Positions 1-51,258 of a stretch of DNA of 52,858 nucleotides are shown here, in pieces; position 1 is the first letter of the stretch, and every line of letters starts with the position of its first letter. The DNA comes from Sedimentisphaerales bacterium (GTDB taxonomy: Bacteria > Planctomycetota > Phycisphaerae > Sedimentisphaerales > SM23-30), in assembly GCA_963663965.2 (NCBI GenBank), contig CAXXFK010000003.1:1-52858 (forward strand), in the 5' to 3' direction. The translations under genes were made by a program, and so were the position numbers. The notes beneath the pieces were generated by a model. That model was not told the DNA's origin. It saw nothing but the letters and a program-made list of their open reading frames with translations, and searched no databases.

Positions 1-311
1 ACCCAACCGGCCACGCCCGCAGAGCCCCTCTGCGCATTTTTTTGGGGTAGGCTGTGTGCTGGGTGCCATCCTTCAAGCGCAGCTTGTGGGTGGATTTATC
101 GCCTTGTGAATTCCAATATGAAATCTGGTATCCAACCAGCCAATTTGTCGTGGCTGTTATAACAATACGAATGAAATGGAAATCAACAAACTAAAACAAC
201 CTGACATGCTGATTGTAAAAGGCCCGAAGGCCGAAGATCCGCCTCAGGAGGAGCCGACCATTTCTAGCCGGGGTCGTGAGACCGCCGGTCAACGATTGTT
301 TTTAATTTTTT

Positions 312-1095
312 CCACGCCTCGTAGAGGCGTACCGCCAGGATATCTCGCAAAAGAGATAGATAAAACCAACCATGAGCGCAGCGAATACCAAACCAAAACG
401 AAACAAACCCAACATGAAAAAATATCACTCTAACCTCAGCGTTAAAATGAGCTTAACGAAAATAATAATTTCATCCGCCAAATGGCGGATACCCAAAGCG
501 GCCCAACGGGCCGGCATAAAACAGCCCGGGGCAGAGCGAGTCCCGATCCATCGGGACGAGCGCCACCCTGGGTACCAAACCCGAATTTGAAAATTTTAAA
601 CCCACGCCTCGCAGAGGCGTACCGACAGGATTTCGCACCGGAGGCGAAAAATAAAACTAACCATGAGCACAGCGAATACCAACATAAAACGAAACAAAGC
701 CAATGACAAAAAATATCACCCTAACCCCAACAACGAAATGAGCTTAACAAAAAATAAAAAAAAATCCGCCGCTGGCCGCAGGTCCGCCTCAGGAGGACGG
801 ATACCCAAAGCAGCCCATCGGGCCAATATAAAACAACCCAGGGCAGAGCGAGTCCCGATCCATCGGGACGAGCGCCACCCTGGGTACCAAACCCGAATTT
901 GAAAATTTTAAACCCACGCCTCGCAGAGGCATACCGACAGGATTTCGCACCGGAGGCGAAAGATAGAACCACCATGAGCGCAGCGAATACCAAAACAAAA
1001 CGAAACGAAGCCAATGATGAAAATAATGGCCCTAACCCCAACAAAGAACCAAACTTAACCAAAATAAAACCAACATCCGCCACTTGGCGGATACC
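312..1095 (+). repeat. Array of three hairpin-rich units (starts 312, 602, 914; periods 290 and 312 bp)
   Basis: Each unit begins CCACGCCTCG(T/C)AGAGGC and contains ACCATGAGC(G/A)CAGCGAAT, AAACGAAAC(A/G)AA(C/G)CCAA and an ATCCGCC..GGCGGAT hairpin. Confidence 0.95.
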
Positions 1096-1104
1096 ACAAT
1101 TTTA

Positions 1105-1118
1105 AATTCGTAATTCGT
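1105..1118 (+). repeat. Heptamer tandem repeat (AATTCGT)x2 just upstream of RBS
   Basis: Read directly; RBS AAGGAGG at 1137..1143. Confidence 0.8.
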
Positions 1119-1151
1119 AATTAATAATTCCCAACCAAGGAGGTACCAACC

Positions 1152-1991
1152 ATGTCATCTTCACTACGAAGACTCAGAGCCAACCGTCGTAACGCCCAGA
1201 AATCCACCGGCCCCAAAACCCCCGAAGGCAAGGCCATCTCATCGAAAAATGCCATCAAGCACGGCCTCAGCGGCCAGGACCCTGCCCACCTCATCGTCCC
1301 TGGCGAATCCGAACTCACCTACCTCGAATTCCGCGCCGCACTGCTTCAGGATCTCAAACCAACAACCTATCTCCAGCGCCACATTGCCGACCAGATCGTC
1401 TCGGCCGCCTGGCGATTGGAACGATTAGGCCGTATCGAAGCCGAAATGATCGACGCCCGCGTCTATCAACTCCGCCTCACCAACGAAGAAATCCGCAAAG
1501 ACACCGTCATCGACCAGCCCTTCGCCCACTCCAGTATCTACCTGCCCCGCCACAACGAGGTCGGCACCGCCTTCACCCTCGAAACCCCCGCCTTCAACTG
1601 CCTGGCCCGCTACGAAGCCCACCTCAACCGAACCTTCCAGGCCAATCTTAAGCTCCTGCAACAGTTGCAATTACAACAAAAACCAAACGAACCCAATGGA
1701 TATCCCCCAGAGTACCCATTTCCCGACCTGCCCCGCGTCCACATCCCCGACCCGCCCAGAATCCCCACGCACCCCAGCGAAGCCAAATTGGCCCCCGAAT
1801 ACATCAAAGACCGACTCCCCGAATTGATGAAAGACCACAGCGCAACTGACGACCAGGTCTTCAGTTACGCCTGCAACCGCTACGAAGCCCTCAACGATTT
1901 CGCCAACCAGAACGGCGAAGAAGCCCTCCACGCCCTCGGCATCCCCACCAAACCCCCGGCCGACATCCCCATCCCGGAGGATAAGAAATAA
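1152..1991 (+). CDS. Conserved hypothetical protein, 279 aa, ANRRNAQKSTGPKTPEGK..SSxNAxKHG N-terminal motif family
   Basis: Strong RBS; paralog at 47123..47962 differs at 12 of 279 aa, and the nucleotide differences checked in the first 27 codons are all synonymous. Confidence 0.9.
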   Translation: MSSSLRRLRANRRNAQKSTGPKTPEGKAISSKNAIKHGLSGQDPAHLIVPGESELTYLEFRAALLQDLKPTTYLQRHIADQIVSAAWRLERLGRIEAEMIDARVYQLRLTNEEIRKDTVIDQPFAHSSIYLPRHNEVGTAFTLETPAFNCLARYEAHLNRTFQANLKLLQQLQLQQKPNEPNGYPPEYPFPDLPRVHIPDPPRIPTHPSEAKLAPEYIKDRLPELMKDHSATDDQVFSYACNRYEALNDFANQNGEEALHALGIPTKPPADIPIPEDKK

Positions 1992-2173
1992 GATAACATC
2001 AGCCACCACAACCAGAGCATAACACCCATGGATTGATCAAAATAATCGATCCAGCCGGTTTTGCTGCGCACTCAGATAAGGATCCCATTTTCAAATACCA
2101 CTTTAATCGGATCAGGTTTCGAGTATAATCACAGCCTGACCTATAAATTGTTAGTCTTATTCAGAAAGAGGTT

Positions 2174-11318: not shown

Positions 11319-11392
<74 letters not shown>

Positions 11393-47122: not shown

Positions 47123-47962
47123 CTATTTCTTATCCTCCTGGATGGGGATATCGGCCGGGGGTTTGGTGGGGATACCGAGGGCGTGGAGGGCTTCTTCGCC
47201 GTTCTGTTGGGAGAACGTGTTGAGGGCTTCGTAGCGGTTGCAGGCGTAACTGAAGACCTGGTCGTCAGTTACGCTGTGGTCTTTCATCAATTCGGGGAGT
47301 CGGTCTTTGATGTATTCGGGGGCGAGTTTGGCTTCGCTGGGGTGTGTGGGGATTCTGGGCGGGTCGGGGATATGGACGCGGGGTAAATCGGGAAATGGGT
47401 ACTCTGGGGGGTAGGCATTGGGTTCGTTTGGTTTTTGTTGTAACTGCAAATTTTGCAGGAGCTTAAGATTGGCCTGGAAGGTTCGGTTGAGGTGGGCTTC
47501 GTAGCGGGCCAGGCAGTTGAAGGCGGGGGTTTCGAGGGTGAAGGCCGTGCCGACTTCGTTGTGGCGGGGTAAGTAGATGCTGGAGTGGGCGAAGGGCTGG
47601 TCGATGACGGTGTCTTTGCGGATTTCTTCGTTGGTGAGCCGGAGTTTATAGACGCGGGCGTCGATCAGTTCGGCTTCGATACGGCCGATCCGTTCGAGGC
47701 GCCAGGCGGCCGAGACGATCTGGTCGGCGAGGTGGCGTTGGAGATAAGTAGTCGGTTTGAGGTCTTGCAGCAATGCGGCGCGGAACTCGAGGTAGGTAAG
47801 TTCGGATTCGCCGGGGACGATGAGATGGGCGGGGTCCTGGCCGCTGAGGCCGTGTTTGATGGCATTTCTGGATGAGATGGCCTTGCCCTCGGGGGTTTTG
47901 GGGCCGGTGGATTTCTGGGCGTTACGACGGTTGGCGCGTAGTCTTCTTAGTGACGATGACAT
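47123..47962 (-). CDS. Conserved hypothetical protein, 279 aa, paralog of 1152..1991
   Basis: 267/279 aa identical; same AAGGAGG RBS. Confidence 0.9.
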   Translation of the reverse strand: MSSSLRRLRANRRNAQKSTGPKTPEGKAISSRNAIKHGLSGQDPAHLIVPGESELTYLEFRAALLQDLKPTTYLQRHLADQIVSAAWRLERIGRIEAELIDARVYKLRLTNEEIRKDTVIDQPFAHSSIYLPRHNEVGTAFTLETPAFNCLARYEAHLNRTFQANLKLLQNLQLQQKPNEPNAYPPEYPFPDLPRVHIPDPPRIPTHPSEAKLAPEYIKDRLPELMKDHSVTDDQVFSYACNRYEALNTFSQQNGEEALHALGIPTKPPADIPIQEDKK

Positions 47963-47995
47963 GGTGGGTACCTCCTTGGTTGGGAATTATTAATT

Positions 47996-48030
47996 ACGAA
48001 TTACGAGTTACGAGTTACGAATTACGAATT
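47996..48030 (-). repeat. Heptamer tandem repeat AA(T/C)TCGT x5
   Basis: ACGAATT ACGAGTT ACGAGTT ACGAATT ACGAATT on the + strand. Confidence 0.9.
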
Positions 48031-48682
48031 TAAAATTGTGGTATCCGCCAAGTGGCGGATGTTCGTTTTATTTTTAGTTAAGCTCAATTCTTGGTTGAGG
48101 TTAGGGCGATATTTTTTCATGTTGGGTTTGTTTCGTTTTATGTTGGTATTCGCTGCGCTCATGGTTGGTTTTATCTTTCGCCTCCGGTGCGAAATCCTGC
48201 AGGTATGCCTCTGCGAGGCGTGGGGTTTAAAATTTTCTACGCTGGTTCGGGTATTCCCGCCAATGAATTGGCGGGCTATGCGCTTTTGATCTCTCCGAGA
48301 TATTATTTGTATCCGCCATTCGGCGGATGATTTTTTTATTTTTAGTTAAGCTCGTTTCATTGTTGGGGTTAGGGCAATATTTTAACCCATTGGCTTTGTT
48401 TCGTTTTCTGTTGTTATTCGCTGCGCTCATGGTTGGTTTTATCTATCTCTTTTGCGAGATATCCTGGCGGTACGCCTCTGCGAGGCGTGGGTTGAAATTT
48501 TAATTTCGTGTTTGTTACCCAGGGTGGCGCTCGTCCCGATGGATCGGGACTCGCTCTGCCCTCATAGGTTATACTAATCCTTAGAGTATATGTTATTATT
48601 AATATCAGTATTCTTTCTTTTTGCTTCTTTTTCTTTCTGTGAAATCTGTTAAATTCTGTGAAACTTGTTATTTCCCCGAAAC

Positions 48683-48835
48683 ACGCCGGGGTGTGGCGAG
48701 GTCCGCGTTGCCCAGACCTTCGAGGGCCCAGCCCAGACTGACCCGCCATCACCCCACACCAACAACCATGAGGAACAATAGATTGTCTTCCTTCGAGGAA
48801 CACTATGAGGCTGCCTGGGTTGTTCGGCTTGGCGT
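48683..48835 (+). ncRNA. IS110 bridge RNA (target-binding and donor-binding loops)
   Basis: Two stem-enclosed loops, each with a CCTTCGAGG hairpin; flanking segments match the target and donor junction sequences. Ends approximate. Confidence 0.88.
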
Positions 48836-48864
48836 AACACAACCACTAGAAAGGAGATGAATCC

Positions 48865-50100
48865 ATGCTGTTCGCCGGAATCGATTGGTCCGATCAAAAC
48901 CTGGATTATTGTTTGTTGGAGGAACAGCAGGACCCACCATTGGCCCAGGGCCAAGCGCCCGTTAGCGCCGAGGGCCTGGCCGACCTGTTCGTGCATTGGG
49001 AACAATACGCACGGCCTGACCAAATCTTGCTGGCGGTGGAAACCTCCTGCGGCTGCTGGGTTCAAAGTCTGCTGGATCGCGGCTATCGCGTATATGTGGT
49101 TCATCCCGCCGCCATTAAAAAGTTTCGCGAAGCCTTGTATCCCCAAGGCAACAAAACCGACAAGATCGACCGGTATGTGATCGCCCGATTTCTGAAAATC
49201 ATGCATGCCGAATTGAAACCGTTGAAGCCCGACGGCGACGACATGATCGCCTTGCGGATCGCTACCCAAAACCGGTTGCGGCTGGTAGAAGAACAAACCG
49301 CCAAAATCAATGAACTGAAATCTCTGCTGAAATGCCATTATCCGGCCTTCCTGACGCTGTTTGGCAGCATAAAAAGCCATATCGCCCTGGATTTTCTGTG
49401 GGCGTTTCCCACCCAGAACCGAATGATGGCCCTGACACCCAAACGACTGGGAAAATGGTTGATCAAACACCATTATCCCAGCATGGGCCGTTTTGAAAAA
49501 ATGGCCGCCATTCTGAAAGCGCCGGCCTTGCCCATTGCCCCCAATTTGCAAGAAGCCCACGCTTCGCTGATTGGCTATTTGGCTAAAAGTCTGCAAGCGC
49601 TCACGCGCGAAATCGATGACTATGATCGGAAAATTAACGACCTGCTCGACAATATGCCCGAAGCGGATTGGATCCGATCCCTGCCGGGTGCCGGCAATGT
49701 GTTGGCCCCGGCTTTGCTGGCCTGTTTGGGGCGAGACCCGGAACGCTTTGACAATCCCGCCCAAGCCCAGGCCTTCTTTGGCACCGCGCCGGTTACCAAA
49801 CAAAGCGGCAAATCGTGTCAGGTCCATTTTCGCTTCGGCTGTTGGAAATTCGCCCGTCGCACTTTGCAGCTCTTTGCCGCCAGTTCCTGTCTCTTTTGTC
49901 AATGGGCCAAAGAATTCTACCATAAACAACGACAGAAAGGAAAGTCCTACCATGCCGCCCTGAGAAGTCTGGCTCACAAATGGGTAAAAATATTGCTGGC
50001 CATGAAAAAAACCGGCCAACCCTATGATGATAACATGTTTGTTAACAGTCAACATAGATATCTCGAAAATCAATCGCAATTAATAGCGGTAACTGGTTAA
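48865..50100 (+). CDS. IS110-family transposase (DEDD recombinase)
   Basis: GIDW, AVET, KTDKID, SLPGAG, G.AP..KQSGK; RBS AAGGAG. Confidence 0.96.
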   Translation: MLFAGIDWSDQNLDYCLLEEQQDPPLAQGQAPVSAEGLADLFVHWEQYARPDQILLAVETSCGCWVQSLLDRGYRVYVVHPAAIKKFREALYPQGNKTDKIDRYVIARFLKIMHAELKPLKPDGDDMIALRIATQNRLRLVEEQTAKINELKSLLKCHYPAFLTLFGSIKSHIALDFLWAFPTQNRMMALTPKRLGKWLIKHHYPSMGRFEKMAAILKAPALPIAPNLQEAHASLIGYLAKSLQALTREIDDYDRKINDLLDNMPEADWIRSLPGAGNVLAPALLACLGRDPERFDNPAQAQAFFGTAPVTKQSGKSCQVHFRFGCWKFARRTLQLFAASSCLFCQWAKEFYHKQRQKGKSYHAALRSLAHKWVKILLAMKKTGQPYDDNMFVNSQHRYLENQSQLIAVTG

Positions 50101-50115
50101 TTTTTAAATTAAGAT

Positions 50116-50121
50116 TTGACA
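50116..50121 (+). promoter_or_regulatory. Outward -35 box (TTGACA) of IS110 circle-junction promoter; -10 TATACT at 48570..48575
   Basis: Joining the ends through one CT core gives TTGACA-17 nt-TATACT. Confidence 0.88.
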
Positions 50122-50794
50122 TAGATTGTCTGGGCTATTTTATGCCGGCCCGTTGGGCTGCTTTGGGTATCCGCCATTTGGCGGATGAAATTATTATTTT
50201 CGTTAAGCTCATTTTGTGGTTGAGGTTATGGTCATTATTTTCATCATTGGGTTCGTTTCGTTTAGCATTAGTTTTCGCTGCGCTCATGTTGGTTTTATCT
50301 ATCTCTTTTGCGAGATATCCTGCAGGTACGCCTCTGCGAGGCGTGGGTTAAAAATTAAATTTCAATCTCTATCCGGGGCCTTACGGACCCCGGCTAGGAA
50401 CTTTCGGCTTTTCAAGCCTTTTATGGCTGGGTTGCCGGGTTGTGTTGTTTTTGTTGGCTTCCATTTCATTCGTATTATTACAACAGCCACGTTAAGTTGG
50501 CTGGTTGGGTATCAGATTTCAAATTGGAACTCACAAGGCAACAAATCCACCCACAAGCTGCACTTGAAGGATGGCACCCAGCACACAGCCTACCCCAAAA
50601 AAATGCGCAGAGGGGCTCTGCGGGCGTGGCCGGTTGGGTGCGGGGCACGCCGGGGATTGGCGGGTGGTTCGGGGGCTATTGGGGCGACTTTGGGATTATA
50701 GACTGGTGTTGTGAGAAAGTCAAAATAAAAATATAGTAATGTGTTATAAAAACACAAATATATTTAAGTTGCGTTATGATTAAATGTGGGGCAA

Positions 50795-50908
50795 ATGGGA
50801 CCGATGGGATGTATGTGAGTGTAAGATACTGAAATGTAAGTTGTTATGGTGAATATGGCGGTGGGATTGGGTGTGGGAATAATGGGAGTTATGGGAATTA
50901 TGGGAGGA
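50795..50908. repeat. Two clusters of degenerate 9-bp repeats (ATGGGAnnn)
   Basis: ATGGGACCG ATGGGATGT..; GTGGGAATA ATGGGAGTT ATGGGAATT ATGGGAGGA. Confidence 0.6.
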
Positions 50909-50949: not shown

Positions 50950-51258
50950 TCATAAAAGCTGGTCGCCGGGGTTCTCCGCGTACAGCCGGTAGCCGCTGCG
51001 GGTGATGGCGGTCAGGCGGTAGGTGGTTCCGGTTGGGCCGGCGGTGAACTGGCCGGCGGGGTCGGTAGTGACGGTGATGGTGCGAGACTCGCCGCCGTCA
51101 GGCGGGGCAATTTCCAGCCGGAGGGCGGCCTGGCCGACCGGTTCGCCGTACTGGTCCACAATCCGGTCGGCGCCCTCGGCCGGCCGGGGCAACAGGGTCA
51201 GGATGGTCAGGATCAACCCGGCGGACAGCGAAAGGATGGTTCGTTGATGGTGCGGCAT
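50950..51258 (-). CDS. Secreted protein with carboxypeptidase-regulatory-like domain, probably truncated
   Basis: AAGGAG RBS, signal peptide, RIVDQYGEPV..VTTDPAGQF; ends abruptly next to the skewed region. Confidence 0.5.
   Translation of the reverse strand: MPHHQRTILSLSAGLILTILTLLPRPAEGADRIVDQYGEPVGQAALRLEIAPPDGGESRTITVTTDPAGQFTAGPTGTTYRLTAITRSGYRLYAENPGDQLL

Follow-up and report, generated by a model that had tools for sequence, protein, structure and literature searches.

The pac sites of pac-type phages lie in or beside the gene for the small terminase subunit (TerS), and the SaPI and PICI phage satellites carry a TerS of their own. Genes are associated with repeated DNA in other described systems as well: a REPtron consists of a RAYT gene with flanking REP hairpins, REP and BIME elements are mosaics of repeats, and repeats of the ToxI type are a few tens of nucleotides (nt) long. 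In this study we describe a cassette consisting of a promoter, a leader, an array of structured repeat units and a gene for a protein of 279 amino acids (aa), which is dispersed over the genome of a Sedimentisphaerales bacterium of the phylum Planctomycetota (assembly GCA_963663965.2). Two copies of it, copy 1 and copy 2, are found in the stretch of DNA that was analysed, namely positions 1 to 52,858 of contig CAXXFK010000003.1 (52,858 nt; hereafter, the window). The cassette is an undescribed variant of dispersed repeat cassette, organised around a family of TerS-like, putatively DNA-binding proteins, and its 26 copies may amount to a new type of element, either selfish or related to packaging.

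The closest described group is formed by viral proteins with the sequence HGGxSTGPxTxEGK, which match PHROGs 9231, 1889 and 509. The likeness to a TerS and its pac site concerns a homologous N-terminal module of ~43 residues (hhalign probability of 98.9%, together with a reciprocal hit), a similar size (180-300 aa) with the N-terminal module followed by a helical region modelled as self-associating, and a conserved DNA motif and repeats located in or adjoining the protein's own gene. In contrast to TerS genes, the 279-aa gene stands alone, with no large terminase or phage gene adjacent to it in the window or in 80 loci of the family, it is present in 26 chromosomal copies, and it is accompanied by units of ~290 nt downstream of a strong promoter. 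As in the phage satellites, a chromosomal element encodes a small-terminase-like protein apart from any large terminase, and the logic in common would be that of redirecting the packaging motor of a helper to DNA with the cognate site. However, the cassette measures 1-3 kb, while satellites measure 6-18 kb, many copies of it are present per genome, and no helper phage is known. A phage satellite with its own packaging-specificity factor is reportedly also the subject of a study on the packaging of Vibrio PLE (bioRxiv 10.1101/2024.04.22.590561). From these comparisons, the closest functional parallel to the cassette would be a TerS with its pac site or the packaging-specificity module of a satellite, although membership in TerS is not established. 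Neither adjacency to a large terminase nor a family match over the whole protein was found.

The protein family and its relation to phage small terminases

By sequence comparison, the first ~43 residues of the 279-aa protein share homology with the N-terminal module found in one class of phage TerS. An earlier note on the window, made without database searches, had pointed to a likeness between this segment and the HGGxSTG motif of phage-associated proteins, and this link proved to be well founded. A scan of viral contigs revealed 28 loci that encode the N-terminal motif, and in 21 of them the open reading frame (ORF) that bears the motif, 224-299 aa in length, has a further ORF of 267-654 aa behind it, no more than 500 nt away. 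Among the 15 downstream ORFs that were scanned, five match PHROG 2 (terminase large subunit), one matches a methyltransferase and nine match nothing. As for the motif proteins themselves (18 scanned), six match the small-terminase PHROGs 1889, 9231 or 509, over a stretch that holds the N-terminal motif, five match an unannotated PHROG and seven match nothing; several of the viral proteins read HGG[x]STGPKTPEGK. In a profile-profile comparison (hhalign), the family was aligned with the viral set over 43 columns at an E-value of 2.4e-17, and the viral profile, when searched in the source genome, retrieved exactly the 26 copies (E about 1e-13). A literature search on the strings STGPRT, STGPKT and HGG[RAK]STGP found no paper.

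The 279-aa protein had no match in scans of Pfam, NCBIfam, PHROG and PADLOC, a profile search of the PDB sequences with it yielded noise only, the protein atlas returned nothing but clusters of 'hypothetical protein', and no Pfam domain is given for the family representatives in precomputed lists. The family is large, since a HMMER search against 1.84 billion cluster representatives recovered 21,884 of them with E ≤ 1e-3, of which 5,447 reach E ≤ 1e-10. Its core extends approximately over residues 4-180, with N14, G20, P21, G26, N33 and W87 being invariant, and the N-terminal consensus is ANRxNAxKSTGPxTxEGKAxSSxNAxKHGL. The TerS-like module occupies residues ~3-45, and the C-terminal 100 residues are specific to the lineage.

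The AlphaFold model of the protein (predicted local distance difference test, pLDDT, of 77) is all-helical, with short N-terminal helices followed by a long antiparallel hairpin formed by residues 73-118 and 133-176. No match at E ≤ 0.001 was obtained with this model in Foldseek searches of PDB and BFVD, and VIA-align wide gave only generic helical-hairpin (coiled-coil) matches, with Z ≤ 7.5. When residues 1-180 were modelled in four copies, the score was 0.75 against 0.31 for the best control, a value that belongs to a model and whose calibration was carried out on two copies and not on four; in that calibration, 20 of 30 proteins solved as pairs of one chain scored 0.75 or more, as did one of 23 solved as single chains. 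The runs share at least 67% of the contacts, the pLDDT of the partner is at least 69, and the interface lies on the hairpin, leaving residues 1-39 free. According to this model, the helical hairpin is predicted to self-associate.

Relatives of the protein have been found in Acidobacteriota, Planctomycetota, Verrucomicrobiota, Actinomycetota, Proteobacteria, Zixibacteria, Ignavibacteria and bins of candidate phyla. The family is present in nine of 41 related genomes, with one or two copies in each, and in 23 of 301 genomes of a sample of the phylum (the source genome being counted in both cases), while a pattern scan of reference genomes revealed 302 relatives, several genomes having three to six copies among those listed. 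The scans of reference genomes and viral contigs were built on a family alignment of five sequences, and the 80 loci mentioned above are those that were kept. The ORFs nearest to these loci (n = 143) are heterogeneous, many of them being housekeeping genes and a few of them related to defence or mobility; no recurrent partner appears, and no integrase, replication, capsid or regulatory satellite family was matched by any of the 143. The positions of the gene are not syntenic between related genera, and many homologs are found on metagenome contigs of 1-2 kb. In one locus (L030, 728..1288), the homolog is situated just downstream of an ORF which resembles, by eye, an XRE/LexA-type repressor with a peptidase S24-like C-terminus.

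The gene is also linked to a DNA motif. With one mismatch allowed, the motif AAACGAACCCAA yielded 41 hits on the gene strand, 36 of which fall between +450 and +1100 from the gene start, in 27 of the 80 loci and in many phyla. Two variants, AAACGAACCCAA and AAACAAACCCAA, were distinguished, and the extended consensus is roughly (T)GC-AAAC(G/A)AACCCA(A/T)T. In many phyla, family members have the motif where the core gene ends, at its 3' terminus or shortly past it, and tandem repeats often surround it. Homologous proteins whose ORF extends over the motif translate it in several frames, as QNEP(N/I), as (Q/K)TNPI and once as KRTQF, and among 258 homologs [QK]NEP occurs 19 times, versus 1.2 in shuffles, and TNP[IMN] 14 times, versus 1.3. 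Because the motif is translated in different frames, its conservation acts at the DNA level.

This motif coincides with boundaries and repeats in other genomes. In an Acidobacteriota genome with six copies, the homology between paralogs stops directly after the motif, and in some other genomes tandem repeats begin in the 3' end of the gene (e.g., 4.5 x 229 nt in L138). In relatives of the same order, A/C-rich modules that resemble part of the unit adjoin the homolog just downstream. The earlier note had asked whether homologs, too, have arrays upstream; tandem repeats do accompany the homologs in other phyla, but they are placed downstream of the gene. In the source genome, the exact 11-mer AAACRAACCCA occupies a constant position in the coding sequence (CDS) of 25 of the 26 copies, and variants of it are found in each unit, the exact form being also present in the array of copy 1 at 401..411.

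Copies, promoter and repeat units in the source genome

The earlier note had described, at the beginning of the window, a leader, three units, a heptamer tract, a ribosome-binding site and a 279-aa gene, and in addition an inverted second copy whose protein differs in 12 of the 279 residues. All these features were found where they had been placed (Table 1). However, the claim that the element is present twice was an undercount, as the 279-aa gene exists genome-wide in 26 full-length, stop-free copies plus two fragments. The source genome comprises 7.24 Mb in 42 contigs, and copy 1 is cut inside the element and lacks its promoter because the window opens at the first base of a contig. The original observation is real but was understated, and the interpretation attached to it is partly supported.

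Protein identity across the 26 copies is 94-100%, and their DNA identity to copy 1 is 90-94%. For the 325 pairs of copies, the mean nonsynonymous divergence (dN) is 0.027 and the mean synonymous divergence (dS) is 0.28, with a dN/dS of 0.09, and the variable sites in all copies are distributed as 43/24/160 by codon position. The conservation of the protein through synonymous changes, which had been noted between the two window copies, therefore reflects strong purifying selection, and the C-terminal 104 residues are constrained too (pN/pS ~0.18). Given a dN/dS of 0.09 together with a dS of 0.28, the copies are old and each of them has been conserved individually, so that they represent neither a recent burst nor a segmental duplication. 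The idea of a dispersed element stands on these 26 copies, and that of two copies within one larger duplication does not.

The alignment of the copies shows a common left end and a common right tail, that is, dispersed copies with sharp shared ends. The tail, of ~75 nt, follows the stop codon, holds a hairpin and ends in ..TGCGCA; it is common to most copies, including copy 1 but not copy 2. For this reason, the end of homology at the stop codon reported for copy 1 and copy 2 is correct for this pair, but not for most of the copies. On the left side, the common part ends in a near-consensus promoter, TTGAC(T/A)-N17-(G)TCTATAAT, which is followed by the conserved leader. The extended -10 box that had been suggested at 155..163 falls inside that leader, the promoter being located further upstream, where copy 2 retains it. 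A profile of promoter and leader matches 43 places in the genome, of which 27 precede gene copies (25 of the 26 being served in this way) and 16 lie elsewhere. In the window copies, a terminator-like hairpin with a run of seven T sits ~75 nt past the -10 box.

Adjoining the -35 box on its upstream side (window 50740..50790, reverse strand) is an A/T-rich inverted repeat that is conserved in most copies. It occurs in two variants whose arms change together, TTATGTT..AACATAA and TGTGTT..AACACA, and it may be a candidate operator for a dimeric regulator. Approximately six of the 26 cassettes share an upstream extension, which consists of the 102-aa secreted ORF listed in Table 1 and short repeats resembling TCCCAT(A/T)A (50800..50900).

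The repeat units, each of ~270-310 nt, number between one and eight per copy, so that the figure of exactly three does not apply in general. A BLAST search with the start of the unit gave 111 hits genome-wide, grouped in 49 clusters, 23 of which do not adjoin the 279-aa gene. Promoter, leader and units are the same in these clusters but lead into other genes, several of them encoding signal peptides. The specific coupling of array and gene that had been proposed is not borne out, since the same promoter, leader and units precede genes for secreted proteins and follow a second multicopy orphan gene (see below). The heptamer tract does occur in both window copies, but it was seen in only three of the 26, with two repeats in copy 1, five in copy 2 and five in one further copy. 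Its form is (T/C)TCGTAA, and in the other 23 copies a different AT-rich spacer of short repeats precedes the ribosome-binding site.

Each unit is a mosaic of the hairpins H1, H2 and H3, A/C-rich linkers with conserved words, and optional hairpin inserts. H1 (ACGCCTC..GAGGCGT) has an invariant stem, H2 exists in two forms (32:31 and 32:32) set apart by two compensatory pairs, and H3 (ATCCGCC-NNNN-GGCGGAT) combines a conserved stem with variable loops of 4 nt. The linkers bear the motif AAACGAA(A)C..CCAA. The base composition of the arrays (A 34.7, C 27.0, G 20.0 and T 18.3%) shows a marked strand bias. The folding of one unit gave z = -3.2 on the sense strand and z = -2.4 on the antisense strand, and because both strands fold nearly equally, folding does not discriminate between them.

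Several identities considered for the units were discarded. Small ORFs within them (72-79 aa) were judged non-coding, because indels of 1 and 4 nt occur directly past the putative start and because the hairpins would be translated. In a permissive Rfam scan of 1..1200, the segment 499-530 of a unit resembled Acido-Lenti-1 (RF01687), at 24.7 bits versus a threshold of 37 and on the strand opposite to the array, and the identity was rejected; at gathering score, nothing except a tRNA was matched in the whole window. Likeness to integron attC sites and to Xer/dif sites, assessed by eye against the architectures of those sites, was dropped as the arms are unconserved between units or wrongly arranged.

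Binding of repeats by the protein, and other explanations

The explanation that we tentatively favour, which is plausible without yet being probable, is that the cassette is selfish and dispersed and encodes an oligomeric TerS-like protein whose DNA target is the repeats with the motif. The protein would oligomerise in vivo via its helical hairpin, its TerS-like N-terminal module would bind the motif-bearing repeats as a TerS does with a pac site inside its gene or adjoining it, and gene and repeats together would constitute a small selfish cassette that spreads and is retained. In a more specific version, distinctly unlikely in our estimation, the motif arrays would act as scattered pac-like signals, at which the TerS-like protein would start headful packaging whenever a compatible large terminase is active.

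Several results weigh against this explanation. The homology to TerS spans just 43 residues, the rest of the protein being not detectably homologous, and no match of the whole protein to any TerS family was found in Pfam, NCBIfam or PHROG; likewise, 62 family members compared with PHROGs 370, 509 and 26270 gave four single-member hits, all of them with E ≥ 0.048. In the 80 loci, no flanking ORF (n = 143) gave a terminase Pfam match at E ≤ 1e-5. The search of the source genome with a large-terminase PHROG gave two weak matches, and is uninformative because a control search also hit 11 of 14 reference genomes. The DNA motif is present in only one of the 28 viral loci (L147), which encodes a full-length family member. 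As far as the repeats are concerned, units and promoters also exist without the gene (23 of the 49 clusters and 16 of the 43 promoter/leader places), phasing of AA/TT at ~10.5 bp is absent from 21 arrays (z about 0 at periods of 10-11 nt), and the strand bias together with the strong upstream promoter means that a role as RNA fits at least as well as a role as DNA. With regard to mobility, the copies are old (dS 0.28), in contrast to recently active insertion sequences, and neither target-site duplications nor terminal inverted repeats were seen when looked for at the ends of the aligned copies.

The arrays could instead act as RNA, forming a long structured 5' leader, C-rich and G-poor, that controls whatever gene follows it. 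It could do so through early termination at the hairpin of the leader and its U-run, through Rho loading on the unstructured linkers or through an effect on RNA stability, and in one variant the protein might bind the leader RNA and regulate its own expression. This is a rather improbable alternative, in which the near-consensus promoter of 25 of the 26 copies, pointing toward array and gene, the terminator-like hairpin shortly after the -10 box, the biased composition of the strand and the location of the same leader and units before secreted-protein genes would all find a place. Stems are conserved while loops vary, as would be expected of such an RNA, but the covariation of H2 amounts to two haplotypes only; similarly, one unit folds well in the sense direction, but almost equally in the antisense, and H3 is terminator-like on the antisense strand only. 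In other lineages, moreover, the repeats are downstream of the gene, no Rfam family was matched at gathering score, and the module in common with TerS proteins suggests recognition of DNA. Another explanation that starts from the repeats, to which we also give a rather low probability, is that promoter, leader and units are a dispersed repeat family in their own right, in which REP- or MITE-like modules accompany a portable promoter and which is functionally unconnected with the protein; among the several genes wired to this family, the 279-aa gene would simply be the most frequent. The clusters and promoters that do not adjoin the gene, the second genome-restricted multicopy gene with the same promoter and with units after it, and the mosaic nature of the units with their optional inserts are in line with it, and so are the resemblance of a unit segment to Acido-Lenti-1 on the opposite strand and the complete copies of Acido-Lenti-1 that flank Y1-transposase genes in this genome. 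The arrangement recalls that of REP and BIME elements, with hairpin modules dispersed intergenically in ~50 clusters, mosaic arrays and an associated small gene, and that of a mobile or re-used promoter, since a homologous promoter and leader lie upstream of non-homologous genes in one genome. Unlike in a REPtron, the 279-aa protein lacks the HUH/Y1 (Y1_Tnp) domain, and the Y1_Tnp genes of the source genome, which are separate and flanked by true Acido-Lenti-1 motifs, are found at other loci; unlike in REP and BIME elements, it is the gene of the cassette and not the repeat alone that is multicopy, and the units measure ~290 nt and come with a promoter cassette. Kilobase-scale structured arrays and a gene family conserved across phyla also set it apart from a mobile promoter. 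A tie between gene and repeats is further indicated by the motif AAACGAACCCAA, which goes with the gene family in different phyla, lies where paralog homology ends in an unrelated genome and, in 25 of the 26 copies, forms part of the CDS, and by the unit-like modules that adjoin the homologs in relatives of the same order.

The protein might also be a new recombinase or transposase, or an essential end-binding subunit, that moves an element of ~0.7-2.5 kb with one fixed end at the motif and one variable end, the tandem 3' modules resulting from repeated end-directed events. The multicopy presence of the family in several unrelated genomes, its patchy distribution among relatives, its heterogeneous chromosomal contexts and the many homologs on short metagenome contigs would agree with this, as would a right boundary that is sharp at the motif and a left boundary that varies. 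Dispersed copies with sharp common ends are what an insertion sequence or a transposon would show, but no transposase domain or catalytic fold was recognised in the protein, whose model is all-helical, no inverted repeat or target-site duplication was found, and the copies of the source genome are old and individually conserved, all of which makes this explanation very unlikely. Finally, the order of promoter, tandem array and protein gene in the source genome is that of ToxIN, and would suit a type III toxin-antitoxin-like module in which the array is processed into RNA units that neutralise the protein. This is hardly credible: the protein is all-helical and, instead of showing the endoribonuclease fold of ToxN/AbiQ, has no PADLOC or Pfam match, the units of 270-310 nt far exceed the repeats of the ToxI type, arrays exist without the gene rather than being exclusively coupled to it, repeats follow the gene in other lineages, and 26 copies under purifying selection would be atypical.

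The window, associated elements and significance

The features of both window copies, together with those of their surroundings, are collected in Table 1. The neighbouring genes in the window encode a sulfatase, a lactonase, a GH43-like protein and an AAA ATPase, and no integrase, replication, capsid or regulatory satellite family was matched among them.

Table 1. Features of the two cassette copies and of other elements in the window (coordinates in nt).
Feature	Coordinates	Strand	Remarks
Copy 1, leader	1..305 (~305)	+	Non-coding; 5' end lost to contig start
Copy 1, terminator-like hairpin, then T-run	18..34, then 37..43	+	Within leader
Copy 1, modular repeat units (n = 3)	306..1100: ~306-597, ~598-909, ~910-1100	+	Spacing 290-312 nt
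Copy 1, heptamer TTCGTAA x2	1107..1120	+	AT-rich spacer follows
Copy 1, ribosome-binding site AAGGAGG	1137..1143	+	
Copy 1, gene (279 aa)	1152..1991	+	Conserved DNA motif within CDS at 1685..1695
Copy 1, 3' tail after stop	1992..2070	+	Hairpin 2030..2052; final letters ..TGCGCA; homology to most other copies terminates at 2070
tRNA gene	11319..11392		Sole Rfam match in window at gathering score
Copy 2, gene (279 aa)	47123..47962	-	267/279 residues identical to copy 1; no shared tail after stop
Copy 2, leader, three units and heptamer x5	47994..50694	-	Unit 1 split by insertion sequence
Copy 2, heptamer tract x5	48028..47994	-	
IS110-family insertion within unit 1 of copy 2	48560..50130	+	Approximate ends
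IS110-family transposase ORF	48865..50100	+	PF01548, PF02371, NF033542
Copy 2, leader hairpin and T7, terminator-like	50622..50606	-	Terminator scan; counterpart of copy 1 18..34 and 37..43
Copy 2, sigma-70-type promoter TTGACT-17-TATAAT	50723..50695	-	11/12 consensus matches (promoter scan)
Small secreted-protein ORF (102 aa)	50950..51258	-	Weak CarboxypepD_reg match, E 9e-5

The earlier note had seen no transposase motif, but an IS110-family transposase ORF interrupts unit 1 of copy 2. The element to which it belongs, of ~1.5 kb, has only two copies in the genome, the one in the window and a second one at 6068-7638 of contig C36, which are 99% identical. Both of them interrupt array units, and because they sit at an identical place in the unit, it is suggested that the IS110 element targets the array repeat site-specifically. 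The first 59 nt of the IS110 query recur alone in a third array (contig C12, 79772-79830).

The second multicopy ORF associated with the arrays starts with MNRSMQILARAQYY and was read as ~261 aa; it is found at 77081-77863 of contig C10 and at about 13 further places, which makes ~14 full or partial copies. It has the same type of promoter, and the AAACGAACCCAA motif and units follow it. Its C-terminal half resembles translated, unit-like A/C-rich sequence, and neither a homolog outside the source genome nor a domain match was found for it. As for Acido-Lenti-1 (RF01687), matches above threshold flank Y1-transposase (PF01797) genes on both strands (contig C19, 125714-126321, and contig C32, 102513-103631); since it flanks these genes, in the source genome it behaves like REP or like the IS200-type end hairpins of a REPtron.

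With regard to the family, ~22,000 cluster representatives across many phyla have been left without annotation, and they now gain several handles: an N-terminal module of the TerS type, a helical core modelled as self-associating, and a conserved, cognate-looking DNA motif located where the repeated unit ends. The source genome represents the most extreme expansion of the family so far. If the protein binds the motif, the family would stand for a class of minimal selfish cassettes not described so far, possibly with a link to phage packaging and transduction. Such a cassette would also explain the common assembly breaks and the 'hypothetical proteins' of Acidobacteriota, Planctomycetota and other metagenome bins.

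The consequences would be larger if the arrays did serve as packaging signals, because ~49 clusters are scattered over 7.2 Mb, and 26 of these include a small-terminase-like gene together with a putatively constitutive promoter. A helper phage or particle would then be converted into a transducer of the whole chromosome, while the phage would be starved of packaging capacity, and the cassette would be a minimal, integrase-less 'packaging beacon' that is widespread across bacterial phyla. Even if the arrays acted as regulatory RNA, a reusable promoter with kilobase-long modular leaders, placed before 40-odd genes, would constitute an unusual expression device.

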